From assembly GCF_004010195.1 (NCBI RefSeq), contig NC_057749.1:12149650-12213649 (forward strand): DNA of 64,000 nucleotides, read 5' to 3'. The first letter of the stretch is position 1; each line of letters begins with the position of its first letter. The translations under genes and the position numbers were made by a program. Of the stretch, positions 4,535-57,086 are shown one piece after another. The notes under the pieces are model-generated. The model was not told the origin of the DNA. It did not search any database and worked only from the letters and a program-made list of their open reading frames with translations. Source of the DNA: Chiloscyllium plagiosum. Taxonomy: Eukaryota.

Positions 4535-6472
4535 GGGTATGTCAATTGGAAGGGGTTAGAGGGATGTGGGCCAACAAACACTGGCAAAAGGGACCAAATT
4601 AATTTAGCAAATCTGGTCAGCACGGACGAGTTGGACAAGAAGGTCTGATTCCATGCTGTACATCTCTATCACTCTATATACACAGATTGAAGTAATTTTC
4701 TTTCGTGCAAATGAAAAGACCGTTCTGCAACTTATAGCTGAGCTTCAAACCACCAGGTTAACTGAAGAAGCATCATCTCAACAACCAAACAAGCATGTAC
4801 ATGAATATATGACATGAAAGAAACCACCTTCTTTTAACTCTATGCTAGGGGCAAAAATTAAGCAAAGTACCATCACACCGTCTCTGTCACTGTGACCCAC
4901 TTCCACGTGCTAACTAATCTTTGCAGAGACACTGGTATATCCTTTGGGAATATTAGCACAGCTGCAAAACAATCAGTTAAACCACAAAGAATTGCTGGGT
5001 CAGCTAAAAAAATCATCAAAGGGTCTTTATTTGTCAGTTGGTTTAAGGATGAGAAAATTAGGGAAGTAAACACGTGACGAAAGGAGTGGTGTGAGAAAGA
5101 GGGGTTTCATTTCATGAGGCACTGGCATCAGCTCTGGAATGGGGATCTGTACTAATGGGACAGTCTCCACCTGAACTGATCTGGAATCAGTGTTCTCGTG
5201 AAAAGGGTGGTCACAAAGACCATAAATTAGTGAATCGGGGGAAGGTAAGGGGAAAACAAATGACAAGAAGTATGATGGTAAATAGAGAGGAAAGCATGTG
5301 TGCAAACTATGCAAGAAATTAAAAGGAAGGATAACTCAGGAGATATGATTAATGGAGATGTTAGAATTCATAAAGATGGTATAAAAACCAGCAGAAAAGC
5401 ACTTTACCTGAATGTTTGTTGCATTCGAAACAAGGTAGATGAGTTAATAGCACAAATCATCGCAAAAGAGTATGATTTAGTAGCAGGATGGTCATGATTG
5501 GGAATTAAATAAGCAGGGTACCAGACTATTTGGAAGGACAGACAGGAAGATAAGGGAGGTGGTGTAGCTCTGATATTTAAGGTCACATCAGGGCAGTGGT
5601 GAAACATGATAAAGATTCGATGGAGAATAAGGTTGAATCCATTAGAAATTCTAAGAATAAAATGTCACTGATAGGCGTAGTCTATCGGCTACCAAACAAT
5701 ATCACATTGGGGCAGGCAATAAGCAAAGAAATATCTATTGCCTATAAAAAAAATGGCATGGCAGTTATCATGGGCAATTTTAATCGTATATGTTGATTGT
5801 TCGAATAAAGTCGGTCATGGTAGCCTTGAGGAAAAAATTCATTGCATGTATCCACGATAGTTTTCTTGAACATGTAATAGAACCAACAAGGGAGCACACG
5901 ATCCTGGATCTGGTCCTGTGTAATGAGACAGGAATAATGCATGATATCATAGGGATCCTCTTGGAAGGCACGATCACAGTATGGGTGAATTTAGAATACA
6001 GATAGAAAATACGAAGATAAAATCCAATACGACGGTCCTGTGCTTAAATAAAGGAGACTACAATAGGATGAGGGAGAAGTCGGCTAAAGTAGACTAGAAG
6101 CAAAGACTTCATGGTGGCAATGTGATGAATAGTGGAGGACTTTCAAAGGACTCAGCAAAAGTGTATACCAGTGAAAAGGAAAGTCTGAAGGAAAAGGGGT
6201 AATCTACCATGAGTGTTGAAGGAAATAAGGAAGGCTTTCAAATTAAAAGAGAAGGCATACAAAGTGGCAAGGACCAGCGGGAAACTAGAAGATTGGAAAA
6301 ACGTTATCTTTCTTTTCTTTATAACTTTTAGATAATGAGAGTAAACTAGCTCTGAATAAAAAGACAGATAGCAAAAGTTTCAAGAAATATAAAAAACAAA
6401 AGAGTGGCTCAGGTAAAATATTGGTCTTTTACAGGATGAGAAGGAGGACTAGTCATGGGATATAAGGACATG

Positions 6473-8280
6473 AAGAAAGTGAGGACTGCAGATGCTAGAG
6501 TTCAGAATCAAGGGTGTAGTGCCGGAAAAGCACAGCAGGCCAGCCAGCATCAGAGGAGGAGAATTGACATTTTGGGCATAAGCCCTTCATCAGGAATGAG
6601 GCTTGTGGGTCAGGGCTGAGAGATAAATGGGAGGGGTGTGGGGTTGGGGGAACGTAGCTGGGAAAGTGACAGGTGGGTGAAGGTGATAGATTGGGAGGAG
6701 GGGGATGATGGATGGGTCCAGGGGGGAGTGCAGAATTGGAAGCTTGGGACTGGGATAATGTGAGGGGAGGGGAAATGAGGAAGCTGTTTATCCCATGTGG
6801 TTACAGGGTCCCAAGGCAGAATAGGAGGCATTCCTCCTCCAGGCATCAGGTGCTAACAATTTGGCAGTGGAGGAGGCCCAGGACCTGCATGTCCTTGACG
6901 GAGCGGGAGGGGGAGTTGAAGTCTTCAACCATGGGGTGGTGGGGTTGGTGGGTGCAGGTGTCCCAGGGATTTCTCTGAAACGATCTGCAAGAAGGCGTCC
7001 TGTGTCCCTGATGTAGAGGAAACTACATCGGGTGCAATGGATGCAGCAGGTGACATTGGTAGAGGTAGAGGTAAATTTCCAATAGATATGGAAGGATCTC
7101 TTGGGGCCTTGGACGGAGGTGAAGGGAGTGGTGTGGGCGCAGGTTTTGCACTTTCTGTGGTGGCAGGGAAAGATGCCAGTAGTGGGGTATGGGCTGGTGG
7201 GGGTTGTGGATCTGATGAGTGGGTCGCAGAGGGAATGGTCTTTTCAGAACAATGACAGGGATGGGGAGGGAAATATCTCTCTGTGGTGGGGTCCATTTGG
7301 AGGTGGCGGAAATGGCAGAGGATGATGTGTTGTATACACAGGTTGGTGAGGTGGAATGCGAGGACTAGGGAGGGTTATTTCCTTGGATGCTGCCTGAACT
7401 GCTGTGCTCTTCCAGCACCACTAATCCAGAATCTGGTTTCCAGCATCTGCAGTCATTGTTTTTACCAGGGTTATTTCCTTGTTGCATTGGGAGGGATGGG
7501 GTTCAATGGTGGTGGTGTGTAAAGTTGAGGAGATGCTCTGGAGGGCAATGTCAACCATTTGGGACCTGTGGAAGTCGATGGGTTGTAGTATATGTCTGTG
7601 GTTAGTTGGTCGCCAGAGATGGTGATGGAGAGGTCCAGGAAGGGGAGGAAGGTTTCTGAGATGGTCCAGATGAATTTAAGGTCAGGGTGGAAGGTGTTGG
7701 TAGAGTTGATGAACTGTTCAACCTCCTCGCAGGAGCACAAGACAGCGCCAATACAGTCATCAATGTAATGGAGGAACAGGTGGGGAGTGGTGCCGGTGTA
7801 ACTGTGGAAGATCGACTGCTCCACATATCCAACAAACAGGCAGGCATAGCTGAGTCCCATGGCTACCTCTTTGGTTTGGGGGAAGTGGGAAGATTGGAAG
7901 GAGAAGTTGTTGAGGGTGAGGACCAGTTCAGCCAGGTGGATGAGGGTATCGGTGGAAGGATACTGGTTGGGACAGTGAGAGTAAGAAACGGAGGGCTTGG
8001 AGACCTTCGTCATGGGAGATGGATGTGTACAGGACTGGATGTCCATGGTGAAGATGAGGCATTAGGGGCTAGGGAAATGAAAATTTTGGAGGAGGTGAAG
8101 GATATGGATGGTGTCATGAACCAGCTGGTGTCCCAGCTACTTTCCCCCTAAGATCAATTCCCTCCCATTTATCTCTCAGGCCCGAATCACAAGCGTCATT
8201 CGAAGGGTCTGTTTCCATGCTGTACATCTCTATGACTCTATGAAGGGCTAAGACCCAAAACGTTGAATCTCCTGCTCCTT
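6473..8280 (-). mobile_element. 5'-truncated Penelope-like retroelement (family B) with RT, GIY-YIG remnant and inverted terminal repeat copy
   Basis: LAELVLTLNNFSF...AMG..YACLFVGYVEQ...YIDDCIG (PLE-type RT); CCIHCTRCSFLYI near 6990-7060. 8125-8280 is an inverted copy of 6540-6670. TSD GGATATAAGGACATG at 6458-6472 and 8281-8295. Confidence 0.88.
7386..7466 (+). mobile_element. 81-bp PLE family B 3' terminal fragment inserted in the PLE
   Basis: Reverse complement of the 6475-6555 type terminus; perfect 15-bp TSD AGGGTTATTTCCTTG (7371-7385 / 7467-7481). Confidence 0.85.
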
Positions 8281-8785
8281 GGATATAAGGACATGGCCGA
8301 GGCATTGAATAGGTATTTTGTGTTGTTCTTCACAGTGAAGGAACACTAATAACATGCCAGTAATTGACAAGGAGACGAAAGTAAGTGAGGACCTGGAAAC
8401 AACCATTATCACAAAAGAGATAGCGTTGGACAAGCTAATGGAGGTAAAGAGATAGCAGGAGAGACAGCAAATGCACTTCCTCTAATTTTCCAAAATTCAC
8501 TGACCTCTGAAGCAGTTCCAGTGGATTGGAAAACAGCAAATGTGACACCACTGTTTAAAAAAGGCGATAGACAAAATTTGGGGAACTTTAGACCAGTTGG
8601 CTTAACTTCTGTAGTGGGGAAAATACTTGAGTCTATTATCAACTAAGAACTAGCAAGGCATCCAGAGAGAAATTGTCCCATTGGGCAGATGCAGCATAGG
8701 TTCATTAAAGGCAGGTCATGCTTAACTAATCTGCTGGAATTCTATAAAGATATTATGAGCACGGTTGACAACAAGGATCCAGCAT

Positions 8786-9132
8786 GGGCAGCACAGTGGT
8801 TAGCACTGCTACCTCACAGCGCCAGGGACCCGGGTTTGATTCCAGCCTCGGGCAACTGTCTGTGTGGAGTTTGCAGTCTCCCACTGTCTGCATGGGTTTC
8901 CTCTGGGTGCTCCGGATTCCTTCCACTGTCCAAAGATGGGCACGTTGGGTGAACTGGCCATGCTAAATTTACCATAATGTTCAGGGCTATGTAGGTTAGG
9001 TGCATTACTCAGAGGAAATGTCGAGGAATAAGGTTGGGGAACGGGTGTGGGTGGGTTACTCTTTGAACGATTGTTGTGGGCTTGTTGGGCCAAATGGCCA
9101 GCTTTCACACTGTAGGGATTCTATGATTCTAT
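8786..9132 (+). mobile_element. HE1-like tRNA-derived SINE
   Basis: A box (CAGTGGTTAGC), B-box-like GGTTTGATTCC, central GGGTTTCCTCTGGGTGCTCCGG core, CR1-like tail. Confidence 0.88.
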
Positions 9133-10523
9133 AGTAGTTGTGATGTATCTAGATTTCCAAAAGGCATTCAACAAGGTGCCACATAAAAGGCTGCTGCATA
9201 AGATAAAAATGCATAGCTTTAAGGGTAATCAACTAGCATGGATAGAGGATTGATTAACTAACAGGAAGCATAAAGTGGGAATAAATGAGCGCTTTTCTGG
9301 TTGGCGATCAGTGACTAGTGGTGTGCCTCAGGGATCATTATTGGATCCTCAATTATTCACCATTTACATAGATGCTTTGGAGTTTGGGATCACGTGTAGT
9401 GTTTCAAGTTTGCGGATGACACAAACATGAGTGGTAGATCCAAGTGTGCAGAGGACTGTGAAACTTTGCAGAGGGACATAGACACTTCAAGTGAGTGGGC
9501 CAAGGTCTGGCAGATGGGACACAATGCTAATAAATGTGAAGTCATCCATTTTGCTGGGAATAACACTAAAGAGGATTATTATGTGAATGGTAAAAAAAAA
9601 TTGCAGCATGCTGCTGTGCAGAGGGATCTAGGTGTCCCTGTGCATGAATCACAGAGGGTTGGTCTGCAGGTGCAACAGGTAAATGAGGAGGTAAATTGAA
9701 TTTTGTCCTTCATTGCTAAAGGGATTGAGTTTCAAACAGGGAGGTTATGTTGCAGTTGTAGAGAGTGCTGGTGAGACCACACCTGGAATACTGTGTGCAA
9801 TCTCCTTGTATGAGAAAGGATATACTGGTATCAGAGAGGTGCAGAGTAGGTTCAGTAGGTTGATTCCAGAGTCAAGGGGGTTGTCTTATGAGGAGAGACT
9901 GGGATTATATTCACTGGAATTTAGAAGAATGAGTCAGGTTCTTACAGAAACATAAAATTATGTAGGGAGTAGACAAGATAGAGGTAGAGAGGACGTTTCC
10001 ACTGGCAGGCGAAACTAGGACAAGAGGGCAGTGCCTCAAAATCTGGGGAAGCAGATTTAGGACTGAATTAAGAAGGAATTTCTTCACCCAGACGGTTGGG
10101 AATCTGAGTAATTCCATGTCCAGTGAAGTAGTTAAGCCAAGATAAATAATTTTTTGAACAGTAAAAAAACAAAGAGTTATGGTGAGAAGGCAGTTAAGTG
10201 AAGCTAGGCTACGAAAAGATCAGCCAATATCATATTGAATGGCGGAGTGGGCTTGAAGGCCCAGATGGCCTACTCCTAATGTTCTTTTGTTCTAATAATT
10301 AAATTATCAAAATTAGACCCTCAAGGAAAAATAAACATTACATGAAGCTCAATTGAGGTATGACAGGAAGTTGCAAGTAACACATGGAACCAGAACTAGG
10401 AACCATCTGGAAATGCTTTTTGGATCACTCAAGATAGCATTTCTTCACAGTTCTTTAGCGCTGAGGAAACTGCTCTCGAGCAGCAGTTGTCACAGCATAG
10501 ATCTGAATTTCATGACTGAAACA

Positions 10524-10724
10524 TGAGGTGGAGGAATTGGTGTTGGACTGGGGTGGACAAAGTTAAAAATCACACAACACCATGTTATAGTCGAACAGGT
10601 TTATTTGGAAGCACGAGCTTTCAGAGCACTGCTCTTTCAGCTACCTGAAGGAGCAGCTCTCTGAAAGCTAGTGCTTCTAAACAAACCTGCTATATTATAA
10701 CCTGGTGTTGTGTGATTTTTAACT
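10524..10724. mobile_element. Fold-back PLE family A short element
   Basis: Inverted arms 10561-10635 and 10648-10724; TSD ATGACTGAAACA (10512-10523 / 10725-10736). Confidence 0.85.
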
Positions 10725-10789
10725 ATGACTGAAACACAAAGACACAAATGGAATACTTGGCTTTGTATCAGATCAGAATTTAAAAACGA

Positions 10790-11122
10790 GATTAGGTTAG
10801 ATTCCCTACAGTGTGGAAACAGGCCCTTCGGCCCAACCAGTCCACACACTGACCCTCCGAAGAGTAACCCAACCAGACCCACTTCCCTCTGACTAATGCA
10901 CATAACACTAGGTTAGTAAACACTATGGGCAATTTAGCATAGCCAATTCACCTGAGCTGCACATCTTTGGACTGTGGGAGGAAACCGGAGCACCCGGAGA
11001 AAACCCACGCAGACACAGGGAGAATGTGCAAACTCCACACAGACAGTTGCCAGAGACTGGAATCGAACCTGGAATCCTGGTGCTGTGAGGCAGCAGTGCT
11101 AACCACTGCCACCGTGCCACCC
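10790..11122 (-). mobile_element. HE1-like SINE
   Basis: Reverse complement of 55194-55510; B box GGTTCGATTCC. Confidence 0.9.
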
Positions 11123-11556
11123 TTATAATAATGTAACTGGTCAAAGATCCAATTTAAGCCTTAACGATAACTTTACACATTTTTAAAATATCGTTCACAT
11201 GCCCAAAACTTCACAAATGGGCAGCGGTCACAGGAATTGAAGGTTACGAGACAAAAAAAAGTTATAAATTGCAACAAAAATTTCAGAAACATGTCAAAAA
11301 ATGTACAGGAATAAAAAGGGATGTTTATATGACAAATACTGAGGGCTCATAATACCAGAAGCTCAAGGCATACAGAAAGTGCAGGGATTACTTAAAGAAA
11401 TTAGGGAAGTGAAGAGACAGCATGAAAAACACATAGGTAAAACAAAGGAAAAATCGAAAGGCATTTTCGAAGAGTGCAAGGAGCAAAAGTATAACCAGGA
11501 AAAGGTGGCTCCCATACAGGCAATCTGTGGACTCTGAAGACATAGATGAGGCCTCG

Positions 11557-12130: not shown

Positions 12131-12269
12131 TTGTGCAACGATAAATGATGCCCACAACTGACTCCACAAAAACGAACAAGAAATTTTAGGCCAAAAAACT
12201 CTGTACACCAATGTGACTGACCATGAATGGACAACTACACTGGAACAAGTCATCAGTATTCAACAACAA

Positions 12270-13389: not shown

Positions 13390-13509
13390 GGGAGAAAGTG
13401 AGGACTACAGATGCTGGAGAGTCAGAGTCCTGATGAAGGGCTTATGCCTGAAAGGTCGACTCTCCTGTTCCTTGGATGCAGCCTGATCTGCTGTGCTTTT
13501 CCAGCACCA
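13390..13509. mobile_element. PLE family B short element with internal inversion
   Basis: Terminus GAGAAAGTGAGGACT.CAGATGCTGGAG joined to an inverted segment; TSD CTCTTTTCCYATTCT (13375-13389 / 13510-13524, one mismatch). Confidence 0.82.
13424..13463 (+). ncRNA. Minimal type I hammerhead ribozyme motif (one substitution in the helix III palindrome)
   Basis: AGAGTC-CTGATGA-A-GGGC TTAT GCCT-GAAA-GGTC-GACTCT; 6-bp helix I, predicted cut after GUC at 13457. Confidence 0.6.
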
Positions 13510-13544: not shown

Positions 13545-14270
13545 TATCTAGACATTGTGTCAAAGGTTATTTATCCAAATCCTCAAAACATGTCAATGAT
13601 ACCAAACTTGGAGAAGTGGCAATTGTGAAGATAATACAAATCAACTGCATCCAGACAAAGCTAGGGTAAAACAATGTGTAGACAAGGAACAGATAGCATT
13701 TAATACCTGGAAATGTGAGGTCATGCATCGTGTAAAGATGACATAAAGAGAAGCAATAGAGACTAAATGACAGAGTTTTATACAGTGTGCAGGGAAAGTG
13801 GGCCCTAGGGTGTAACTGGGATCTTTAAAGGTAGCATGAAATATTCAGCATGGTTCGTAAAGTACCTTGAGTTTCATAAAACGATTTATTTAGTTCAAAG
13901 GCAGGGAAATTACATTGAACTTTTGAGAGTCACTGATTAGGCTACATGTAGGATATTACATTTATCTCTCATCACCATAATATTAACAATGGATACTGGA
14001 GATGGAATTGTTCCAGAGATAGAGGAATATTATTTTAAAAATGTTAATTTGGAGAAACTCTGATTGCTTGGAACAAAGGAGGTCAAAGGAAGATTTTGTA
14101 AAATATGTCCAAGGTTATAGCAGGTTTGAATAAGATAGAGTCATAGAGATGTACAGCATGGAAACAAACCCTTTGGTCCAACCTGTTCATGTTGACCAGA
14201 TATGATAAAGAGAAAAGATAATTCAATTAATTGACTGGGTTTGGGACAACAGATTCAGGGAGATCTGAGA
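13545..14270 (+). mobile_element. Highly decayed CR1-clade RT, with a short minus-strand CR1 tail inserted at about 14137-14200
   Basis: Residual DTKLG, KCEVMH and LIRL motifs; its 3' end appears to resume after 17290. Confidence 0.6.
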
Positions 14271-25458: not shown

Positions 25459-25579
25459 GGGAGAAAGTGAGGACTGCAGATGCTCCAGATCCTGAAGAAG
25501 GGCTTATGGCCGAAACGTCAATTCTCCTGTTCCCTGGATGCTGCCTGACCTGCTGCGCTTTTCCAGCAACACATTTTCA
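25459..25579. mobile_element. PLE family B short element with internal inversion, inserted in a minus-strand SINE (about 25390-25770)
   Basis: Perfect 16-bp TSD ACACAAAGTATGAATG (25443-25458 / 25580-25595); hammerhead core CTGAAGA..GAAACGTC at 25492-25519. Confidence 0.88.
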
Positions 25580-26373: not shown

Positions 26374-26771
26374 TAAAAATCAATCTAAACATCAGGTCAT
26401 AGACAGAGAACACAGGGGGCTAACACCTTCAACATATTGTCTAGCTATCAGCATTGTTAACAGCTAACCTAAGAATGCAACTTTTAAAAAAAGATTTTGT
26501 GATTTACACATGAAAGAAGTGAAACTATCACTGTATTCTAACAGATGAAAGGCTTAACAGACAATCAATTTTTCAATGCATAATTTCAGTTACATCACAC
26601 TGCAAATTTTTGCTATAAATTCTGTGTTACAATTGAGCCCTCCACTATCACCTGATGAAGGAGCGTCGCTCCGAAAGCTAGTGTGCTTCCAATTAAACCT
26701 GTTGGACTATAACCTGGTGTTGTGTGATTTTTAACTTTGTACACCCCAGTCCAACACCGGCATCTCCAAAT
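26374..26771 (+). mobile_element. PLE family A 3' terminal 400 bp
   Basis: 13-bp TSD CAAAACAAAAGGA (26361-26373 / 26772-26784); terminus nearly the same as the 34497-34675 arms; carries a hammerhead motif. No coding remnant, so the PLE assignment is by analogy. Confidence 0.75.
26649..26683 (+). ncRNA. Minimal hammerhead ribozyme motif, intact core
   Basis: CAC-CTGATGA-A-GGAGC GTC GCTCC-GAA-AGCT-A/GTG: helix I CAC:GTG, 5-bp helix II, palindromic AGCU, predicted cut after 26680. Confidence 0.72.
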
Positions 26772-30419: not shown

Positions 30420-31055
30420 ATTTTACCAAGATGTTTGGTACACATCCTTTATTGATCAGAGCATTGAGTAGAGGTGTTGATCTGGTCGATTAGGCCTTTT
30501 TTTGGAATACTACCTTCAATTCTGGTCTCCCTGTTGTGAAACTTGAAAGGGTTGAGATGTTGTGACACTTGAAAGGGTTCAGTAAAGATTTACAAGGATG
30601 TTGCCAGGTTTGCAGGGTTTGAGCTATAGAGAGAGGCTGAATAGGCTGGGACTGTTTTCCCTGGAGCGTCGGAGGCTGAGGGGTGACCTAATAGAGCTTT
30701 ATAAAATCATGAGAGGCCTGGATAGAATGAGTAGCCAAGGGGTGGCGGAGATCAAAACTAGAGGGTATACGTTTAAGATGAGATGGGAAGTGTTTAAAAG
30801 GGATTTAAGGGTAACCTTTTCACACAGCGGGTGGTGCGTGCGTGGAATGAACTGCCAGAGGAAGTGGTGGAGGTTGGTACAATTGCAACATTTTTAAAAG
30901 GCATCTGGATGGGTATATGAAGAGGAAGAGTTTAAAGGGACATTGCCCAAATACTGGCAAGTGGGACTAGATTAATATAGAATATCTGACTGGCATGGAC
31001 AAGTTGGACCGAAGGGTCTGTTTTCGTGCTATACATCTCTATGACACTGTGACTG
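30420..31055 (+). mobile_element. CR1 3' fragment
   Basis: MLPGLQGLSYRERLNRLGLFSLERRRLRGDLIE plus tail. Confidence 0.9.
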
Positions 31056-34496: not shown

Positions 34497-34675
34497 TCAT
34501 GATTTGGAGATGCCTGTGTTGGACTGGGGTGTACAAAGTTAAAAATCACACAACACCAGGTTATAGTCCAACAGGTTTAATTGGAAGCACACTAGCTTGG
34601 AGCGTCGCTCTGAAAGCTAGTGTGCTTCCAATTAAACCTGTTGGACTATAACCTGGTGTTGTGTGATTTTTAACA
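34497..34675. mobile_element. Fold-back PLE family A element with a perfect 61-bp inverted repeat
   Basis: Arms 34538-34598 and 34614-34674 are exact reverse complements; TSD AGGTTAAACAG (34486-34496 / 34676-34686). Confidence 0.9.
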
Positions 34676-39479: not shown

Positions 39480-39586
39480 GGAGGAGAAAGGGAGGGCTGC
39501 AGATGCTGGAGATCAGAGCTGAAAATGTGTTGCTGGAAAAGCACAGCAGGTCGGGCAGCATCCAAGGAACAGGAGAATCGACGTTT
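39480..39586 (-). mobile_element. PLE family B terminus truncated inside the hammerhead
   Basis: Minus strand starts at GAAACGTCGATTCTCC; TSD TTCACCTA (39472-39479 / 39585-39592). Confidence 0.82.
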
Positions 39587-41434: not shown

Positions 41435-41613
41435 AACCCAAAAGAACTGCGGATGCAGGAAATCATAAACAAAAAACAGAAATGCTGGAAAAGCACAGGA
41501 GGTCTGGCAGTATCTGTGGAGAAATCAGAGTTGACATTTTCGATCCAATTATTCTTCCTCAGAGTGGACTATATGAACTCAGTTTTCTCTCCACAGATCC
41601 TGCTAGACCTCAG
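41435..41613. mobile_element. Degenerate fold-back PLE terminus (family B-related)
   Basis: GGTCTGGCAGTATCTGTGGAGA versus TCTCCACAGATCCTGCTAGACC; decayed minus-strand CTGAGGA..GAAA. Confidence 0.65.
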
Positions 41614-44022: not shown

Positions 44023-44232
44023 ATAAAATGAGGACTGCAGATGCTGGAGATCAGAGCTGAAAATATGTTGCTGGAAAAGCGCAGCAGAAATATGTTGCTG
44101 GAAAAGCGCAGCAGGTCAGGCAGCATCCAAGGAGCAGAAGAATCAACGTTTTGGTTCATGCCCGAAACGTCGATTCTCCTGCTCCTTGGATGCTGCCTGA
44201 CCTGCTGCGCTTTTCCAGCAACATATTTTCAG
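44023..44232. mobile_element. Fold-back PLE family B element with a 27-bp internal tandem duplication
   Basis: TSD ATCTCAGCAAGT (44011-44022 / 44233-44244); arms pivot at 44151-44165; AAATATGTTGCTGGAAAAGCGCAGCAG occurs twice. Confidence 0.88.
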
Positions 44233-45524: not shown

Positions 45525-46358
45525 GCCTCAGAGCACAACAGGCTCTTGATCAGATGGGCCAATGGGCTGAGAAGTGGCAGATGGAGTTTAATTTAGATAA
45601 ATGTGAGGTGCTGCATTTTGGAAAGGCAAATTAGAGCAGGACTTATACACTTAATGGCAAGGTCCTGGGTAAAACTTGGATTGCAGGTTCATAGTTCCTT
45701 GAAAATGGAGTTGCAGGTAGATAGATAGCGAAGACAGCATTTGGTATGCTTTCCGTTTTGGTCACAGCAGTGAGTATATGACTGGGGAGGTCATGTTGCA
45801 ATTATACAAGACATTTGTTAGATCCCTTTTGGAATAGTGTGTGCAATTCTGGTCTCTCTGCTATAAGGAGGATGCTGTGAAACTTGAAAGGGTTCAGAAA
45901 AGACTTACAAGGGTTTGCCAGGGTTCGAGGATTCGAGCTACAGGGAGAGGCTGTTTTTCCTAGAACGTCAGAGACTGAGGGGTGACCTTATAGAGGTTTA
46001 TAAAATCATGAATGGCATGGATAGGGTAATTAGACAAGGTATTTTCCCTGGGATGGGGAATCCAGAGCTAGAGGGCATAGGTCTAGAGTGAGAGGGGAAG
46101 ATTTAAAAGGTTACTAATGGGCATTTTCTTCACGCAGAGGGCAGTGCATATATGGAATGAGCTGCTACAGGAAATGATGGAGGCTGGTACAATTACAATA
46201 TTTAAAAAGCATCTGAATGGGTACATGAGTGGGAAGGGTTTAGAGGGATATGGGCCAAGTACTGGCAAATGGGCCTAGATTAGGTTAGGGTATCTGGTCA
46301 ACTTGGATGAGTTGGACTGACGGGTCTGTTTCCGTGCTGTACATCTCTATGACTCTAT
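45525..46358 (+). mobile_element. CR1 3' fragment inserted in the Gypsy pol region
   Basis: WAEKWQMEFNLDKCEVLHFG through to the gactctat tail. Confidence 0.9.
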
Positions 46359-49045: not shown

Positions 49046-49560
49046 AGAGTCATAGAGATGTACAGCACAGAAACAGAGCCTTCAGTCCAACCTGTCCATG
49101 CCGACCAGATTTCCCAACCCAATCTAGTTGCACCTGCCAGCACTTGGCCCATATCCTTCCAAAACCCTTCCTATTCATATACCCATCCAGTTGCCTTTTA
49201 AATGCTGCAATTGTACTAGGCTCCACCACTTCCTCTGGCAGCTCATTCCACACATGCACCACCCTCTGCATGAAAACATTGCCCCATAGGCCTCTTTCCC
49301 CTTTCACCCTAAACCTATGCCCTCTAGTACTGGACTCTTCCACCCCAGGGAAAAGACCTTGGCTATTTACCCTAACTCTTTAAGGTCACCCCTCACCCTC
49401 AGACGCTCCAGGGAAAACAGCCCTCGCCTATTCAACCCCTCCTTACAGTTCAAATCCTACAACCCTGGCAACATCCTTGTAAATTTTTTCAGAACACTTT
49501 GAAGTTTCACAACATCCTTTCGATAGGAAGGAGACCAGAACTTCATGCAATATTCCAAGA
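49046..49560 (-). mobile_element. CR1 3' fragment
   Basis: TRGHRFRVKG..FMQRVVHVWNELPEEVV plus tail. Confidence 0.9.
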
Positions 49561-49624
49561 TGCAAGGTTTTCTGACAGCAATGGTTAAAGGAAAGGAAAG
49601 AGATGGCAAGGACAAGGAAGTAAC

Positions 49625-50150: not shown

Positions 50151-50599
50151 TGAAGCATTTCCAAGTAACTGGGGGTATCAGTTTCCAAGGAGTATTTTGA
50201 GATGTGTAGCTGGGACAAAGTTGGAGCCATTTGAACTTGCTCCCTGGAATAGCTACCATTCGGTCCTAGGATAAATCTTCAAATCAAGCAAAGCATGTAA
50301 AGAACCCCATTCAGGAGTATCAATCTATAGGCCTATTTAATGAAAACAGGAAAGGTTGTGGAGCACAAAGGATGAATACAGGTATGGAGGAAGAAGGCCA
50401 CCATGGTCATACAAAAGGGGTCATCAAAGATAGGTTAGCTGAATAAGAGGGAGATTAAGGAGCAAAGACAGTTTGACCTCAGGATTGAAAAGAAAGCAGG
50501 AGCCTTGGGCTCGAGTCCAAACTGCAGTCTATCTGCACCTGAGGTACAAAAACATTTCAAAAGTTTAGATGACATCAAAAAGACTAGATCAGTCAAAAT

Positions 50600-51170
50600 A
50601 TGGGGTCCTATTGAGGCATGAGCGCACAAACCAGGAGCAGGTTTGGTGCCTCAACTCTGCCACACTTCACAAGTTCATGTCTGATTGTAGCCCAATTCCC
50701 CTTTCCTGTGTACCTCCTATACTCTGTGACTCCCTTGTTGGTCAAAGATTTATCAGCTTCTCACTTAAAAATATTCAAAGGCTCTACTTCCACCGCACTC
50801 TGGAAAAGAGTTCCCCACACACAATCCTTGGAGGAAAAGAAATCTGCACATAACTGCCTTAAATAGAAGGCCCCTTGTTTTCAAACTGTGTCACCTAAGT
50901 TTGAGTCTTACAAAGGAGAAACAATTTTTAATATTCACCACTGTCAAGCTCCCTCAGGATTGTGTGTGTTTCAATAATATCACCTTTCATTTTTCTAAAC
51001 TCCTAGGATGGATACAGTCCCAATCTGTCAGACCTATCCTCATAAGATAACGCCCTTATATCAGCAATCAATTGAATAAACTTTCTCTGAACTGCTTCCA
51101 ATACAATTATGTCCCTTCTTAAATAAGAAAACCAACACATTACTCCAGATGTGGCCTCAATAATTCCCGA
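50600..51170 (-). mobile_element. Decayed CR1-clade 3' end
   Basis: Similar to the reverse complement of 9850-10290. Confidence 0.6.
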
Positions 51171-51454
51171 GTTATTAACAAGAAGCTGCTGGGGGAGTTA
51201 CAGCAGCCACTAGTCAGTTAAAGGAGAAGCATAGTGCCAAGCAAGTGCATCCATTAAATTAGAATTGCTGGATACACAAATGAACTCATTTGAAGAATCA
51301 TGCACAGCAGACCCAGTCCATGACGAAAAAGACTAGAATTATAAACATGTCTGACTCTCATCTCAGCAACCAAGCCAGGTATTTCATTCACTCAACAGGT
51401 ATCAAAAAATATAAACATCAAACTTTTGATTCTCAGCATAAGTTACCAAAAAAA

Positions 51455-52690
51455 TTGACAAGGCAGAGCAGTAGACTTTAATGAAGTCTTGGACAAGATT
51501 CCACATGGTAGACTGATTAGTAAAGTTAGGTCACATAGGTTCCACGTGAGCTTGCCAACTGGATACATAATTGACTCAACAGCAGGAAACAGAGTAGTGA
51601 TGGAGGGTTGCTTTTCAGACTGGAGGCCTGTGACCAGCAGTGTTCAACAGGCATCGTTTCGGAGTCCTCTTTTGTTTGTCATTTGGATGAATTAGATAAA
51701 AATATAGAAGACTTGGTTAGTAAGTTTGCGGAAGACACCAAAATTGATGGCATAGTAGGCAGTGAAGAAGGTTTTTAAAATTACGAAGAGATCTTGATCA
51801 AACGGGTCAATGGGTTGAAAATGACAAATAGTGTTCAATCTGGATAATGTGAGTTATTGCATTTTGGTACAACAAATGGGGACAGAACTTATACAATTAA
51901 TGGCAGGGCCTTGGGTAGTGTTGTAGAACAGAGGGACCTACAGGTTCAAGTACATAATTCTTTGAACTTTCAGTCACATATAGACAGGGTGGTTAAAAAG
52001 ATGTTTAGCATGCTTGCCTTCATTGGTCAGTCCTTTGAGTATAGCAGTAGGGTTGTCATGTTGATATTGTGCAGGATATTGATGAGGCTGTGTCCTGTTC
52101 TGGTGATCCTGTTGTCGGAAGGAAAGGATCAGGCTGGAGAGGGTTCAGAAGAGATTTACCAGGATGTTGCCGGGTATGGAAGATTTGAGTTACACAGAAA
52201 GGCTGGGAGTTGTTTCACTGGAGCGTACGAGGTTGAGAGGTGATCTTATAGATGCTTTAAAATCATAGAACATTACAGCACAGTACAGGCCCTTCGGCTC
52301 TCGATGTTGCTCTGACCTGTCATACCAATCTGAAGCCCATCTAACCTACACGATTGCATGTACATCCATGATGTGTAATAGTAGGGTTAATGATAGGTGC
52401 TATTTCCCTAGGATGGGGGATTTCAAGACTGGGGAATACATTTTTAAAGTGAGAGAAGAGAGATTTAAAAAAAAGACATGAGTGCGGTGTGCGTATGGAA
52501 TGAACTTAAGAGGAAGTGGCAAATGTGGGCCCAGTTCCAACATTCAGAAGTCACTTAGATAAGTACATGAATAGGAAAGGTTTGGAGGGATATGGGGCAG
52601 GAGAAGCAGGTGGGACTAGTTTAGTTGGGCATTATATTTGGCATGGACTGGTTGAACCAAAGGGTCTGTTTCCTTGCTTTGTGACTCTAT
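51455..52690 (+). mobile_element. CR1 RT and 3' UTR, with a short minus-strand CR1 tail inserted at about 52264-52370
   Basis: DKIPHGRLISKVRSH, KFAEDTK, HFGTTNGDRTYTING. Confidence 0.88.
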
Positions 52691-53757
52691 CAGGTGGTCA
52701 AGATTTAGATATAAATATATTGGCTTTGACTAATAGCAAGTTCAATTCAACAGTCGATAAATTTGATTTGTAGTCTTCTTTGATCCAGGCACATAAGTGG
52801 ATGTCTTTACCACTCACAGTTACACAACTTTAATGAAGAAGGGTCCTTGTGACAAGCTACAATCATTGCTGAGTCCCAGGATTTTCAGCTACCAAGTAAT
52901 TAGTCTGTTTGACTCAACAACTAATCCTTTAATTATATGTTGACTGAGGTTGGGTGCAAGAATTGCCATAGTTTCTGAACAGTTTTCAATGTAAGGAAAA
53001 AGAAGTGTTTCCAGAAAGCATGAAAACATACCTGCCTGAGTTAGTGATAGTCACCATGGAATCAGATTTTCTTTACACGCAGATAACATCCAATTCTACT
53101 TCTCCACCACTTCAGTTGTGCAAACACAAGTGTCTCGTCAGATTACCTGCCTGATATAAGTCATGTATTAGTCAAAATTTCTTCCAATTGAACAGCAGGG
53201 AGACCAATTGCAACCGTTACCCTTCAGTGCTCGACTCTTTCAGCCTAAACCAAACTGTGCAAACTCTATACAACAGGATTAAGTTTAGAATTCTAGATCT
53301 AATACCTCCTCCATTACCACTTAGCCTTACTTTTACAACTATTTTCACCCCTATCCCACAATTGCTGCCAAAATTTGTAACCTATATTTAGCCACTCCCG
53401 GACCTGATTTATCCAATATCTGCCGAACCATCTCTTACCTTCTTGTACTCGCTTGCATTGAAAAATGAATTCAATAACTTTTTAAGAAAGTGCATGTGGT
53501 CAATTTTGGGGACACTTTGAAAGAAATACAGCTTATATGGACTTCTTAAACACTGGATAAGGGACCATATAGGAGTATATTAACATGTGCAACCCACAAA
53601 CATTACCCTTCTAAACCTCTCATCAGTTTCCTTACTATGATTGAGTTAATAACAGGAATCCATTTAGTCTGCTGCTAAAATAAAAACAGAAAGAAGAGAC
53701 TATTGCTATTTTCCTTTTATCTTTCTCATTTGTTTTAGTTTGGAACTGAGTGTCGAA

Positions 53758-54026
53758 ATTATAGAATCCCTACAGTATGGAAGTAGGGCATTCGACCCAT
53801 AGAGTCCACACCGACTCTCCAAAGCACATCCCACTCACCTATTTTATCCCCATAATCCCACATTTCCCATGGCTAATCTACCTAGCCTGCACAACTTTGG
53901 ACAGTGGGAGGAAACCCATGCAGTAACAGGGAGAACGCACAAACTTCACACAGACAGTAGCCCAAGAGTGAAATCGAACCTGGGTCACTGGCACTGTGAG
54001 GCTGCAGTGTTATCCACCGTGCTGCC
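53758..54026 (-). mobile_element. HE1-like SINE
   Basis: Reverse-complement SINE with B box GGTTCGATTTC. Confidence 0.85.
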
Positions 54027-55193
54027 AAAGTTAATAAGTGAACTTTGAACAGGAGTTTGTTTTAAAAGAGAAGAGAACAAAGATAGATGCTTTCTGCTGG
54101 GAACTGGTCTGGAAGATACTGCATCTTTATTACTGATTAAGGACTCTATCAGTGCTGAGTTGATGCTATGCCCAGGGCTAGTAGCTGGTTGGCTGTTGAG
54201 TTGGTCAATCAAGGATGAACTGGTTCTGACTCAGGTTAGCAGGAGGCAGTGATTCTTTGGAGACTTCCAGAGACTGTGCTGCTTTGTTTAGCTCTCTCTC
54301 CAGTTATCCAAGAGTGAATATGTAGACATGATACTTGGGTAATTACATAGTCATTGTGTTAAGGGTTTATTGGGGCAAATTCCTCGAAATGTATCCAGGG
54401 GAGCTTTTTAAGACCATAAGACATAGGAGCAGAAATCAGGCCATTCAGCCCAGAGAGTCTGCTCAACCATTCAATAGTGGCTAATAGGTTTCTCAACTCC
54501 ATTCTCCCGTTTTCCCCCTGTAATCTTTGATTACTTTGATACTCAAAAACCTATTTCATTCTTAAATACACCCAATCAATACTCATAAATATATTCTATC
54601 GATACGGAGAAGGTCCGACAAGAATCTGGTTCTGTGGAAAAGAATTCGGACAAATGTTTGATATGGCAGTCCGGGTACATTTAGGTAATGGGAACCACAA
54701 CATGATATATAGTTCAAATTTATTCTGGATAAGAAAAAAGATGGCCTGCAAAAGACGCTTTGGATTGGTGGAAGGCAGATTTCATTACAATAAAGCAGGA
54801 TTTCGCCACTAGACTGGGAACAGCTCCTTGCAGGTAGATCTACAGCAGAGCAATGGCGGGGGGGGGGGGGGGAGGAGGAGACCGGGGGTGGGGGGGACGC
54901 ATTCAGAAAGAAGCAAGAGGGAGTACAGGTTCAACATGTACTCTTTAGAGGGAAATGTAGCATCAATTAGTTCACAGAACCCTGGATGACTAGGACATTT
55001 CAGGACTGGATATAGAAAAGTCAGGCTTTTAGCAAGTCCAAAGGGAGCAATTCAACTGTGGCCTTACAGGAATACAGGAAGTGCAGGAGAGAACTTAAGA
55101 ACACAATTTGAAGAGCAAAAGGGAAGCATGAGAAAGGACCTGCATACAAGATTACAGAGAATCCTAAGATAGTCTGTAAATACATGAATTTAT

Positions 55194-55510
55194 GGGCAGC
55201 ACAGTGGCACAGGGGTTAGCACTGCTGCCTCACAGCGCCAGAGACCCGGGTTCAATTCCCGCCTCAGGCGACTGACTGTGTGGAGTTTGCACGTTCTCCC
55301 CGTGTCTGCGTGGGTTTCCTCAGGGTGCTCCGGTTTTCTCCCACAGTCCAAAGATGTGCAGGTCAGGTGAATTGGCCATGCTAAATTGCCCGTAGTGTTA
55401 GGTAAGGGGTAAATGTAGGGGTCTGGGTGGGTTGCGCTTCGGCGGGTCGGTGTGGACTTGTTGGGCCAAAGGGCCTGTTTCCACACTGTAATGTAATCTA
55501 AATCTAATCT
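55194..55510 (+). mobile_element. HE1-like SINE, best-preserved copy
   Basis: A box, B box GGTTCAATTCC (55249-55259), central core, (aatct)n tail. Confidence 0.92.
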
Positions 55511-56362
55511 GAAGGGAAGACGTTAACCAAGGAAAGAGTAGAGTCCACTAGGGATATTGGAAGAATTTTGAATGAATACTTCTCTTTAGTTTTTATTCTG
55601 GATAAGACAATGCTGGAGTGAAATTCAGGAAAAGAGACTATGGAGAACTCGCACAATTTGACATAGGAAATGGGGAGGTATTGGAGGCTTTGTTGGGCTT
55701 AAAAACAGACAAATCCCCTGGCTCGGATGAAATGCACCTCCAGCTACTGTGGGAGGCAAGGCAGGAAATTGCAGGAGCTCTGACACAAATTTTTAATTCC
55801 TAACTGGCCACAAGGGAAGTGCCAGAGAACTGGAGGATGGACAATATGGTTCCACCTTTTAACGACAGTAGTAGATATTACAGGCTGGTGAGTTTCAAGT
55901 CATGGTAGGGAAACTATTGGAGAAAACTCTGAAAAAATGAATTACAACCACTTGGAAAGGCATGGGTTAATTAGGGATAGTCAGTATGGCTTTGTCATAT
56001 GGAGGTCTGACAAATGTTAGAATTCTTTGAAAATGTGATCTAGTGTGTGGATGAGGAAAATTCAGTTTATGTAGTTTATATCAATTTTAGAAAAGCTTTT
56101 GACAAAGATCCAATTGGGAGAATGATTGAGAAGGTTAAAGCACATGGAATTAAGGGAATTTGGCAAGATAGATCAGAAACTGGTTTAGTAATAGGACAAA
56201 GGGTAGTGGTAGAAGGCTACTTGAGTGACTGGAAGGCTGGTGTCCAGCAGTGTACTGCAAGGATCAGTACTGAGACCATTGTTGTTTGTTACATACATAA
56301 CTGATATAGATAAAAATGTGGGGGGAATGTCAAGCAAACTTTGCAAAACACCAAATCTGCTA

Positions 56363-56593
56363 TTGTTGTGGTTCTGTTCGCCGAGCTGGGAATTTGTGTT
56401 GCAGACGTTTCGTCCCCTGTCTGGGTGACATCCTCAGTGCTTGGGAGCCTCCTGTGAAGCGTCCTCCAGCATTTATAGTGATTTGTATGTGCCACCTAGA
56501 CAGGGGACGAAAAGTCTGCAACACAAATTCCCAGCGCGGCGAACAGAACCACAACCACGAGCACCCGAGCTACAAATCTTCTCCCAAACTTTG
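56363..56593. mobile_element. Fold-back PLE family C element
   Basis: Arms at about 56366-56428 and 56491-56554; 13-bp TSD ACCAAATCTGCTA (56350-56362 / 56594-56606); homologous to 11570-11680. Confidence 0.88.
56401..56440 (-). ncRNA. Minimal hammerhead ribozyme motif, intact core
   Basis: Minus strand GCA-CTGAGGA-T-GTC A CC CAGACA GG G GAC-GAA-ACGT-C/TGC; helix I GCA:TGC, predicted cut between 56404 and 56403. Confidence 0.72.
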
Positions 56594-57086
56594 ACCAAAT
56601 CTGCTAGAATGGATAATAGCAAAGAAAATGGATGTAGGTTACAGGAAGATACAGATGGGTTTGTCAGACGGGCAGAGCAGTGGCAGATGGTATTTAAGCC
56701 TGGTAAGTGTGAGGTGATGCACTTTGAAAGAAGAAACAAGATGAAGGAGTACTGGGTTCAGGACATTGGGTAGCTTAGAGGAACAGAAGGTATTATTCAC
56801 AGATATCTGAAATCTGCAGAGCATGTGAATTGGACAGTTAAGGAGGCATGTGGAACATTTGCTTGCATTAGTCATGGGATAGTGTATAAGAGCAAGGAGG
56901 TAATGTTGGATTGTACAAAGCATTGGTCAGGCAACAATTGGAGTACTGTATGCAGTTCTGGTCACTTCACTACATCAAGGATATGACAGTACTAGAGGAG
57001 GTTCACCAGAATGTTGTCTGGGTTGGAGAAATGGAGCCATAAGGAGAGAATACATAGACTTGGATTTCTTTCTTGAGTGCACAGAT

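Follow-up and report, generated by a model that had tools for sequence, protein, structure and literature searches.

Short Penelope-like element termini, in one- and two-armed units with hammerhead motifs, in the genome of Chiloscyllium plagiosum

Related elements already described

Canonical insertion units of endonuclease-positive (EN+) Penelope-like elements (PLEs) were reportedly described by Evgen'ev and Arkhipova in 2005 and by Arkhipova in 2006. As set out in the available text of Craig et al. (2021, PMC8557442), PLEs are subject to a high degree of 5' truncation, have an adjacent inverted and truncated copy, and often carry a tail at one end only. The insertions considered here, from the genome of Chiloscyllium plagiosum, share with canonical EN+ units, as far as that text portrays them, the high 5' truncation, the inverted 5'-truncated neighbouring copy, a tail of 30–40 bp that is confined to one end, a terminal repeat with a hammerhead, target duplications of variable length and the lack of poly(A). 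They differ in that both arms are usually short and coding sequence is absent. Moreover, this short class represents about four fifths of events here, whereas the available text of Craig et al. gives no such proportion, nor does it contain a map of arm ends against the hammerhead such as the one presented below.

In vitro work with Poseidon PAc of Anolis (Frangieh et al. 2024, PMC11167929) has demonstrated two adjacent internal start sites for reverse transcription, the tail corresponding to the stretch that separates them. Both target strands were cleaved and extended, hammerhead cleavage was dispensable, and none of the reads ended at the cleavage site. The present insertions resemble PAc in possessing two internal start sites a tail length apart, in the apparent extension of both target strands without a need for hammerhead cleavage, and in a hammerhead situated roughly 60–100 nt upstream of the start sites; a further likeness is that, in two of five long copies of the family termed A below, a frame reaching the terminus starts at an ATG within the helix II loop. 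In contrast, mini-insertions ending at the hammerhead are not described in that paper, and whereas the start sites were used alike on both strands in vitro, the two-armed units here have strictly one tailed and one tail-less arm, so a strict one-tail rule is not predicted by PMC11167929 alone.

The hammerheads are likewise of a described kind. According to the available text of Cervera and de la Pena (2014, PMC4209133), minimal PLE hammerheads combine a CUGAnGA box and GAAA with a helix III cut down to a palindromic ACGU or AGCU, the palindrome suggesting action as a dimer. Most are single motifs “probably related to truncated PLEs”, and some lie on opposite strands, 100–700 bp apart. Measured against that text, the motifs here show no difference in kind, sharing the box, the GAAA, a paired helix II that varies by family, the palindromic helix III, the massive numbers of single motifs, and a number of opposite-strand pairs.

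Published work already includes a ribozyme-bearing, non-autonomous class that PLEs mobilise, namely the metazoan non-LTR retrozymes (Cervera and de la Pena 2020, PMC7229834; Li et al. 2026, bioRxiv 10.64898/2026.07.22.740005). These two sources describe 150–450-bp tandem repeats with canonical type I hammerheads and circular RNAs, and they count one cartilaginous fish among the species credited with retrozymes. The insertions here are similarly short, non-coding and hammerhead-bearing, with kinship to PLE terminal repeats and duplications of more than 4 bp, but they showed no tandem arrays in 340 kb, contain minimal hammerheads, and are arranged as inverted pairs or single arms.

Insertion units in the window

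The window is a 64-kb stretch of contig NC_057749.1 (positions 12,149,650 to 12,213,649), in which an initial annotation had listed ten PLE-terminus insertions, each with its own target duplication, as one possible class. All ten were found at their coordinates, and the units are 3'-terminal pieces of at least three PLE families. The idea of a single class is therefore sound as regards their shared nature as PLE 3' termini, but not as regards sequence, which separates the ten into three mutually unrelated families: family A (units beginning at 6473, 7386, 13390, 25459, 39480 and 44023), family B (10524, 26374 and 34497) and family C (56363).

Evidence for the PLE identity comes from the coding copy at 6473..8280 (minus strand), a member of an older family-A subfamily whose long arm contains reverse-transcriptase (RT) and GIY-YIG-like endonuclease frames, with a YIDD motif visible in the former. 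Since these frames lie on the minus strand, the tailed 3' end of the insertion is at 6473, and a 15-bp target duplication (6458–6472 and 8281–8295) surrounds it. Pfam did not match an RT domain in the window's own fragments, and in related frames RVT_1 scored at or just below the cut-off of 29.6 bits (23.2, 29.6, 29.6 and 29.4). Pfam likewise left GIY-YIG unmatched in the window fragments and in the related frames, and a stretch that follows a Cys-rich motif downstream of the RT, both in this copy and in a long insertion elsewhere (L028), is one that we take to be GIY-YIG-like. Genome-wide, a first look yielded 52,339 RT candidates, and all 150 that were scored had E-values of 6e-65 or lower. 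Language-model neighbours were RVT_1/HTH_animal/DUF8422 clusters of cnidarians, rotifers and chordates (score 0.91). Neither tRNA nor 7SL appeared among the Rfam results for the window, and the unit tails match PLE termini rather than the LINE tail that is also present there.

Direct repeats of 8–18 bp flank all ten units (best repeats of 16, 13, 15, 18, 14, 11, 8, 14, 14 and 17 bp, with unit boundaries free to shift by 3 nt and one mismatch permitted from 13 bp up). These lie far above what random intervals of the same lengths produced in the same window, where repeats of at least 11 bp were found in 0 of 3000 and of at least 8 bp in 1 of 3000. Terminal poly(A) was seen at none of the ten. 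The annotated picture of short insertions with individual duplications of variable length and no poly(A) is thus borne out, the repeats abutting the borders of the short units themselves. As for the annotated sizes, a duplication is present in every case, but the 8-bp repeat at 39480–39586 requires that the unit end at 39584, the repeat being 6 bp as drawn; in addition, reading 25459–25579 as 25459–25577 gives an 18-bp repeat with one mismatch. Overall, duplications vary from 8 to 19 bp. An origin by deletion from long elements, or as fold-back DNA transposons of the MITE type, is scarcely credible for these units: the palindromic shape and sub-threshold matches to miRNA hairpins in Rfam would suit it, but the duplications directly border the short units and vary in size where a transposase would leave a constant one, the inequality of the arms corresponds exactly to the tail, and the sequences are those of PLE termini.

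The simplest units have a single arm with a tail. These include a 398-bp family-B terminus on the plus strand at 26374..26771 (hammerhead motif 26652–26688, 13-bp duplication), which served as the family-B reference, and a family-A terminus of ~105 bp on the minus strand at 39480..39586, with its 8-bp duplication and an arm that ends 7 nt upstream of the predicted cleavage position. A third, of only 81 bp, is nested inside the coding copy at 7386..7466 (plus strand, 15-bp duplication) and belongs to a subfamily with a TAATCCAGAAT-type tail. Two-armed units, to which no single strand is assigned, are found in all three families. In family B, the unit at 10524..10724 (12-bp duplication) has a minus-sense left arm with tail, a right arm without, and a centre just 5' of both hammerhead boxes, and the one at 34497..34675 (11-bp duplication) has its tailed arm on the left, a tail-less right arm, and a centre within hammerhead helix II. 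The family-A unit at 44023..44232 (12-bp target duplication) is centred in the helix II loop, and the family-C unit at 56363..56593 (13-bp duplication) has a tail-less left arm, bearing a minus-strand hammerhead motif at 56437–56396, and a tailed right arm.

Two further family-A units, also without an assigned strand, join a tail to an inverted body. The first, at 13390..13509, has a 15-bp duplication with one mismatch, and its minus-sense tail (13390–13427) is followed by a plus-sense hammerhead and body (13428–13509; motif 13430–13465). The second, at 25459..25579, has its motif at 25492–25527 and a duplication of 16–18 bp. Two more units of the same kind, absent from the initial annotation, were also discovered. 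One is a single-armed minus-strand terminus of an older family-B subfamily at 4402..4527 (motif 4514–4478), around which a target duplication was looked for but not found, and the other, from a further PLE subfamily, is a decayed unit with two arms at approximately 41443..41590, assigned to neither strand, with a minus-strand hammerhead-like motif at 41562–41526.

A regex scan located the minimal hammerhead core (CUGAnGA, GAAA and the cleavage triplet) in units of families A, B and C, about 100 nt from the 3' end of each family. By-eye reading indicates that helix II varies in sequence among families while its complementarity is kept, and the native family-A context provides a helix I of only ~2 bp. 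Rfam returned no matches at the gathering score in the window, and the hammerhead was absent from the eight matches at E up to 5, as expected for motifs without helix III.

Two-armed anatomy and the position of arm ends

In a two-armed unit, two head-to-head arms lie within one target duplication with their 3' ends pointing outward, and the units show internal inverted symmetry. In 214 kb of sequence, 14 of 34 units had this form and 2 of 34 were of the tail-plus-inverted-body type. Extreme 5' truncation, one of the origins proposed in the initial annotation, accordingly describes the short 3' termini but falls short for most units, which are not simple 5' truncations and are commonly two-armed. 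One arm has a terminal tail of 30–42 nt and the other starts just inside it, the arms differing in length by 29–42 nt in all 15 short two-armed units with a duplication. The same layout occurs in two long insertions, L028 (573-nt arms, 14–15-bp duplication) and L035, and the short two-armed units are known PLE insertion anatomy in miniature. An exception is 6473–8280, where the short inverted arm (8131..8280, plus strand) copies the stretch from ~191 to 77 nt from the 3' end; its outer end falls within the body instead of at the second start site, at a distance of ~75–79 nt from the terminus, and a 39-bp LINE-tail fragment at 8203–8241 splits its hammerhead box.

Two broader surveys bear on this anatomy. 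A reference-free palindrome scan of 333 kb returned 20 palindromes, and in 17 the centre falls on hammerhead sequence. In the first 17.8 Mb of contig 1, which contains 185 arms with an exact 30-mer, 16 pairs of neighbouring arms lay within 300 bp of each other, against a chance expectation of ~0.6, and all 16 had their 3' ends outward, with none inward and none on the same strand. The two cleavage positions were 19–61 nt apart in 14 of these 16 pairs.

The units are of a known kind that matches published PLE biology and is very abundant in this genome, and they are probably abortive PLE insertion products with one or two arms. Each is a single insertion event delimited by a staggered-cut duplication of 8–19 bp, with one or two arms copied from the last 100–140 nt of a PLE RNA. 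Where two arms are present, exactly one begins at the outer start site, and hence carries the tail, and the other at the inner start site. Judging from the in vitro work on the Anolis PLE, the two arms may be cDNAs primed from the two nicked target strands, which would then be joined at their 3' ends, often via short microhomologies or through helix II, which is self-complementary. Most units are already defunct when inserted.

Human L1 elements provide a parallel in twin priming, where two cDNAs primed from two nicked strands are joined within one target duplication; the second primer anneals by microhomology at variable internal positions, and the arms do not overlap. The latter is also true of the tail-plus-inverted-body units here, but the starting point of the second arm here is constant within each family, and one stretch is usually copied twice, once in each arm. 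Another conceivable source of two arms is a first cDNA that bends back at the helix II hairpin and serves as its own template, with no second priming at the inner site. Reverse transcriptases are able to self-prime on hairpins, and several centres are indeed perfect hairpins on the helix II loop (L056, L058 and 44023–44232). This origin is nevertheless improbable. It leaves unexplained why, in each of three unrelated families, the second arm should end precisely at the inner start site; in addition, many centres are not located in a hairpin, the arms of tail-plus-inverted-body units do not overlap, and single tail-less arms also exist. Furthermore, 3 of the 16 contig-1 pairs mix two sequence variants, compared with ~0.6 expected from one-site mutation.

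Among the 34 insertions in the 214 kb, 27 were short and 7 long, and if just the 150 kb of arbitrarily selected loci are counted, 17 of 22 were short; this tally was curated by hand, with three ambiguous clusters dropped and family C left out of the arbitrary loci. Both arms of short units usually measure less than 140 nt, giving whole insertions of 80–260 bp without coding sequence. The initial annotation had set a peak near the hammerhead against a smooth length distribution, and the peak is strong, the 27 short insertions ending in the hammerhead zone. Inner arm ends cluster inside the hammerhead or up to ~9 nt upstream of the CUGAnGA box, and those that could be checked lie 7–37 nt upstream of the predicted cleavage site, except in 7386–7466, where the end is ~19 nt downstream; none of the checkable arms ends exactly at the site. 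In families B, C and older A subfamilies the spread is wider, with some ends 36–55 nt upstream of the cleavage position. Young family-A arms form two length groups, of at most 131 nt and at least 166 nt: of 24 arms with at least 86% identity to a family-A reference that includes upstream sequence, 18 end 106–131 nt from the terminus, where the box starts at 127, and 6 at 166 nt or more, although 8 of the 18 are not independent, having been fetched as relatives of one query. Among the 100 tail-to-box junctions listed, the native ATTC precedes the box in 29, 5–6 native nucleotides do so in 9, and 7–10 in none.

Why the arms are short can be answered more tentatively. Quite possibly, cDNA synthesis runs off its template at the 5' end of the mRNA of the element, and for family A this end would be placed 4 nt upstream of the hammerhead box, in what we take to be an initiator-like TCATTC. 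The start sites would then be ~95–130 nt downstream of the proposed RNA 5' end, and initiation on the 5'-proximal copy of these sites would generate a mini-cDNA of the strong-stop type. One raw-read RNA run revealed no place where many molecules begin. It also gave no pile-up of RNA ends, which, as the library was a poly(A) single-cell one, is weak evidence on self-cleavage.

The same anatomy would also arise if the RT stalled or fell off at a folded, protein-bound hammerhead while the template continued. Many arm ends do fall within helix II, 12–17 nt upstream of the cleavage position, the ends are scattered over ~30 nt instead of occupying one position, and the protein studied in vitro contacts RNA beginning near the cleavage site and aids the ribozyme (PMC11167929). 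Such stalling is rather unlikely, however. A block should halt synthesis on the 3' side of the structure, whereas the modal single-arm and tail-to-box ends are 28–32 nt upstream, with the whole core already copied, and have a sharp limit at 32–34 nt upstream. Additionally, the helix II ends come mostly from two-armed units, in which the pairing of self-complementary cDNA ends would place the joint in helix II whatever the length of the cDNA.

Independence of the insertion events

A different possibility, also raised by the initial annotation, is that the short units constitute a self-propagating, non-autonomous, ribozyme-bearing class in which short RNAs, self-cleaved or circular and transcribed from the short units, serve as templates for the PLE RT and endonuclease in trans. 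A class of this sort has been proposed for other vertebrates (PMC7229834; 10.64898/2026.07.22.740005). The junction 25-mer of the unit at 25459–25579 occurs 26 times exactly in the genome, and each of the seven further loci retrieved alongside it is flanked by a separate duplication, of 11–16 bp. Nested shared variants are present in eight tail-plus-inverted-body copies with one junction (three share one variant, and two of those a second), and some short units could have been copied again. The layout also places the complement of the post-cleavage strand just before the hammerhead box, where it is predicted from sequence to supply the 6–7-bp helix I that is missing in the native context. Finally, RNA reads on both strands include short-unit sequence.

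Despite these points, retrozyme-like propagation of the short units is highly improbable. About 50 different tail-to-box junctions occur among the 100 listed, and those that recur coincide with microhomologies (CTGAA, of 5 nt, in 23 and TC in 13), so recurrent formation explains shared junctions. The 26 copies amount to ~0.2% of that variant's 14,254 exact arms. Two-armed centres are individual, with five different ones in six family-B copies, and that of 34497–34675 has no second occurrence in the 3.56-Gb genome. The depth of RNA reads on the two strands resembles passive read-through, and neither discrete starts nor discrete ends were seen in the poly(A) single-cell run. With no checkable arm ending at the cleavage position, no tandem arrays in 340 kb, no discrete RNA ends in that run and individual junctions, the peak near the hammerhead does not agree with the annotated suggestion of retrozyme-like mobilisation. 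Given the differing centre junctions and the lack of tandem arrays in the 340 kb, most units appear to be independent abortive products and not members of a replicating class.

Tandem arrays of the short units, which the initial annotation had proposed looking for, were not encountered in 340 kb, where none of the six arrays with a period of at least 60 consisted of hammerhead units, and the first 17.8 Mb of contig 1 had no same-strand neighbour pairs within 300 bp. In the window, TRF reported only a 27-bp tandem duplication at 44061–44114, which lies in the tailed arm of the unit 44023..44232 and adjoins the second start site.

Identity of the units and their target duplications

The initial annotation had described ten units in this window, comprising nine short insertions of the 3′ terminus of Penelope-like elements (PLEs), named here by their window start, and one coding copy at 6473-8280, each with its own flanking duplication and none with poly(A). 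Both claims held, as flank reading and a chance test confirmed all ten duplications, and 0/10 units end in poly(A). With borders left free by 3 nt, the flanking repeats measure 16, 13, 15, 18, 14, 11, 8, 14, 14, and 17 bp; in a control set of 3000 length-matched random intervals, repeats of at least 11 bp were absent and a single interval had one of 8 bp. For two units the duplication stands with a reservation about its border: at 39480 it reaches 8 bp only under the border 39480-39584, and at 25459 one alternative border is also possible. The target duplications rule out two other origins for the units, namely a fold-back DNA transposon and the deletion remnant of a long element.

Compared with the window by BLAST, the units fall into three unrelated sequence families: family A (7386, 13390, 25459, 39480, 44023, and the coding copy), family B (10524, 26374, 34497, and a further copy at 4402-4527 that was absent from the earlier list), and family C (56363). 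The 1.8-kb coding copy carries a reverse transcriptase (RT) frame with YIDD and, downstream, a GIY-YIG-like frame, both on the minus strand, which places its 3′ end at 6473. An RT fragment searched against the 3.56-Gb assembly gave 52,339 first-look candidates, and all 150 of those that were scored had E ≤ 6e-65. Pfam RVT_1 matched related frames at its cut-off or just below, and the RT and EN fragments of the window copy returned nothing from Pfam; no GIY-YIG model was matched, including by the EN frame of L028, a long PLE insertion from elsewhere in the same genome. A PDB sequence search with a 598-aa frame found no match, and the homologue search with the EN fragment retrieved one uncharacterised bamboo-shark protein without a family name. 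Because RVT_1 is borderline and GIY-YIG is unmatched by Pfam, the PLE assignment comes mainly from insertion anatomy. Adjoining the PLE copy, at 8389-9699 (+), are frames with LINE-type RT motifs that belong to a different retroelement family.

Each family possesses a minimal hammerhead core about 90–100 nt from the 3′ terminus, consisting of the CUGAnGA box, a short GC-rich helix II, and GAAA, with a helix III that is only the palindromic ACGU or AGCU. Rfam reported no hammerhead in the window, either at the gathering score or at E up to 5, and its only matches were sub-threshold miRNA-type hairpins of plant and animal precursors, which arise because the units are palindromic. These miRNA-like palindromes lie at 34546-34665, 44103-44211, and 10603-10682 (e.g., 69.8 bits vs. 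a cut-off of 89). Palindromic units of this sort could pass for miRNA genes in automatic pipelines, and repeat pipelines will class them as unknown palindromic repeats or miRNA-like hairpins. The helix II loop of the family-A core contains an ATG, and in two of five long copies (L028:3056-3168 and L033:2905-3018) the frame that starts there stays open as far as the 3′ terminus; in the other three (L035, L020, and L045) it is broken by a stop codon or by a slip of 1 nt. The Anolis element is comparable in that its ORF begins within the hammerhead. Runs of N take up much of the coding part in several long PLE copies, L033, L045, and L020 among them.

Two-armed anatomy and genomic abundance

Each unit is the product of one insertion event and consists of one or two arms (stretches copied from the PLE 3′ end) with fixed starts. 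Just three units (7386, 26374, and 39480) consist of no more than a truncated tail, and the anatomy of the others had escaped the initial annotation. Four units (10524, 34497, 44023, and 56363) are made of two head-to-head arms with their 3′ ends outward, and in 13390 and 25459 the last 33–38 nt in one sense are fused to hammerhead and body in the opposite sense. Of the two arms in each head-to-head unit, one extends to the true 3′ terminus and the other stops 30–42 nt short of it, at a position that is the same throughout each family, so that the terminal 30–42 nt, or tail, occurs once per unit.

The same layout recurs well beyond the window. A reference-free, BLAST-based palindrome scan of 333 kb of sampled DNA identified 20 palindromes, of which 17 have hammerhead sequence at their centre, and a motif-pair scan of the same 333 kb, with a criterion (at most one mismatch) that proved too strict, still found seven outward pairs and no inward ones. 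In a set of 15 short two-armed units with recognisable duplications (nine scanned palindromes, L041:8591, 44023, and four fetched family-B copies), all 15 had one arm longer by 29–42 nt and the other flush with the duplication. Long insertions can be built likewise; L028 is a 2.8-kb insertion with a 14–15-bp duplication and 573-nt arms that are 95% complementary, with the tail on only one arm and the coding sequence on the tail-less one, and L035, a second long insertion, has a similar layout. The exception is 6473-8280, whose short inverted arm starts within the body, about 75–79 nt from the terminus.

Two irregularities within arms deserve mention. At 44061-44114, within the tailed arm of 44023, 27 bp are perfectly duplicated in tandem; the duplication begins a few nt from the inner of the two RT start sites and would fit a restart of synthesis at that site. 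In the short arm of 6473-8280, a 39-bp fragment like a common LINE 3′ end lies exactly within the hammerhead box (8203-8241), and the same 36–45-bp LINE end also closes seven longer LINE-like copies in the window (335-371, 4642-4677, 14135-14173, 31010-31052, 46319-46358, 49046-49083, and 58968-59012); the fragment may be an extreme LINE truncation or the outcome of a template switch during PLE insertion.

Short PLE termini apparently make up a large class of repeats in this genome. A pair of exact family-A 30-mers across the cleavage position have 14,254 and 18,379 genome copies (32,633 in sum), and the sampled DNA contains roughly one insertion per 6 kb. Among the matches listed for these two 30-mers in the first 17.8 Mb of contig 1, 185 arms include 16 neighbour pairs within 300 bp, vs. 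about 0.6 expected by chance, and all 16 have their 3′ ends outward, with no inward or same-strand pair. The gap between the two cleavage positions is 19–61 nt in 14 of the 16 and, as the hammerhead core extends 28 nt upstream of the cleavage position, both arms of such pairs end within the core or a few nt past it. Three of the 16 (7417158/7417230, 8952872/8952932, and 9273674/9273749, all family A) mix two variants, C and T at one body position, vs. a rough expectation of ~0.6 from mutation at that one site; these small numbers hint that the two arms can be copied from two separate RNA templates.

Known PLE integration and the ends of the arms

The units belong to a kind already known from the PLE literature. 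Craig et al. (2021, PMC8557442) describe PLE insertions as highly 5′-truncated, often adjoining an inverted truncated copy, and with a 30–40-bp tail that is often present at only one end. The minimal hammerheads surveyed by Cervera and de la Pena (2014, PMC4209133) are mostly single motifs, “probably related to truncated PLEs”, and some lie on opposite strands 100–700 bp apart. For tandem retrozymes, the idea that PLE terminal repeats gave rise to a non-autonomous class with hammerheads has also been published (PMC7229834; bioRxiv 10.64898/2026.07.22.740005). The value of the present units is as a large natural record of PLE integration and not as a new class. Purified Anolis PLE protein cleaves and extends both target strands, its RT initiates at two adjacent internal sites of which the interval constitutes the tail, and hammerhead cleavage is dispensable, with no reads ending at the cleavage site (Frangieh et al. 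2024, PMC11167929). The shark record agrees with this in vitro work in its two start sites and in the extension of both strands, and goes beyond it in two respects: each event pairs a tailed with a tail-less arm, and the arms end nowhere but in the hammerhead zone.

Arm lengths were compiled from 15 arbitrary 10-kb stretches plus the window, with all family-A-like and family-B matches curated by hand, family C searched in the window only, and three ambiguous clusters left out (in L039, a larger segment present in two duplicate copies; in L043, an incomplete second copy). The resulting 34 insertions comprise 14 short and two-armed, nine short and single-armed with a tail, two with a single tail-less arm and an uncertain inner end, two of tail plus inverted body, and seven with at least one arm above 150 nt; the arbitrary loci by themselves give 17 short insertions out of 22. 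BLAST ends may stop early where subfamilies diverge, and as a guard against this the family-A arms retained were at least 86% identical to a reference including native upstream sequence. Eighteen of the 24 guarded arms end 106–131 nt from the terminus and six at 166 nt or more (eight of the 18 were fetched as relatives of one query and are not independent). Family-A arm lengths thus have two modes, the shorter being cut off sharply 4 nt upstream of the box, which in the reference starts at 127 nt from the terminus, the cleavage position being at 99. No arm ends at the cleavage position among all verifiable ends; the closest of the hammerhead-reaching arms, in 39480, ends 7 nt upstream of it, and 7386-7466 (81 bp) stops about 19 nt downstream, before the hammerhead.

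By analogy with the in vitro work, the two arms would be cDNAs primed from two nicked strands, one per start site, and joined at their 3′ ends, often via the self-complementary helix II or short microhomologies. One possible explanation for the short arms, at a little under an even chance, is run-off of the cDNA at an RNA 5′ end that would lie four nt before the box. In support, young short arms never pass this point and, among 100 listed junctions, the native nucleotides before the box are ATTC in 29, 5–6 nt in nine, and 7–10 nt in none. The TCATTC around the proposed RNA end may resemble an initiator. The start sites would lie 95–130 nt downstream of that end, so initiation on the 5′-proximal copy would give a strong-stop-like product. 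In Drosophila Penelope, the transcription start has been mapped 46 nt ahead of an intron, at an initiator-type internal promoter (PMC2377424), and the hammerhead directly adjoins the end of that intron (PMC4209133).

Counting against run-off, the spread of arm ends is wider in families B and C and among old copies of family A, and RNA reads from L028 lend the proposed 5′ end no support. In one poly(A) single-cell raw-read run, examined over 801 bases of L028, depth was 1–15 over the ORF end and 3′ UTR and climbed to 300–780, on both strands, between the hammerhead and the terminus. No site where many molecules begin or end was reported in this run and interval; loose read ends with heterogeneous continuations occur at the inner start site, the outer terminus, and the 5′ edge of the hammerhead. 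Such a depth profile would be expected if many short genomic copies were transcribed by read-through. For the step that halts the cDNA, the main rival to run-off is arrest of the enzyme at a folded, protein-bound hammerhead, which seems unlikely given the ATTC junctions and the sharp upper limit. Were run-off correct, the closeness of the start sites to the mRNA 5′ end would make most PLE integration attempts abortive, and the abundance of orphan minimal hammerheads in metazoan genomes would be explained.

Independent events and possible re-copying

The inner ends of the arms fall in the hammerhead zone and their junctions are individual. For example, six family-B two-armed copies have five different centres, and the centre of 34497-34675 has a single genome occurrence, even with one mismatch allowed. 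The pattern of tail end followed by box within 10 nt occurs at 335 sites, and about 50 different junctions are found among the 100 matches listed. Recurrent junctions fall at microhomologies (in the same 100, 23 at CTGAA and 13 at a zero-insert TC), and this together with the junction diversity means that recurrent formation accounts for most of the sharing. Neither the window nor the 340 kb examined contains a tandem array of hammerhead units, and the RNA profile of L028 does not show a dedicated short RNA. Consequently, from the initial annotation's reading, the short inserted PLE termini stand, and the alternative of retrozyme-like mobilisation lacks support for the bulk of the units, given their individual junctions, the absence of arrays, and the RNA profile.

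It is conceivable, if rather improbable, that some short units are not dead and have been re-copied. The tail-plus-inverted-body layout of 13390-13509 and 25459-25579 (about 119 bp) would place two RT start sites facing outward at both ends, and the inverted tail would supply the helix I that the native hammerhead is without; such a unit, transcribed by read-through, might be copied again by PLE RT. A search with 25459-25579 found that 38 of 41 among the matches listed are near full length, at 90–97% identity, and its junction 25-mer has 26 exact occurrences. Seven other fetched loci of this type have their own duplications of 11–16 bp each, and the eight copies with this junction carry nested shared variants, as re-copying predicts. 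The shared junction had been considered proof of re-mobilisation, an argument weakened by the diverse junctions and microhomologies, and a C/T body variant thought private to this lineage was rejected as a marker, the T form having 14,254 exact copies. If re-copying is true, the unit would be the smallest known non-autonomous PLE parasite and a retrozyme-like element needing neither tandem copies nor circles.

Finally, two observations concern loci elsewhere in the genome. The two-armed unit L041:8591-8807 sits at the edge of a satellite array with a 69-bp period (8808-9605), and its duplication is satellite sequence. In L043, a 139-bp single-armed unit (9651-9789) is followed 160 bp downstream by its last 36 nt and the same flank again (9950-9985); the border of the insertion has been duplicated locally.
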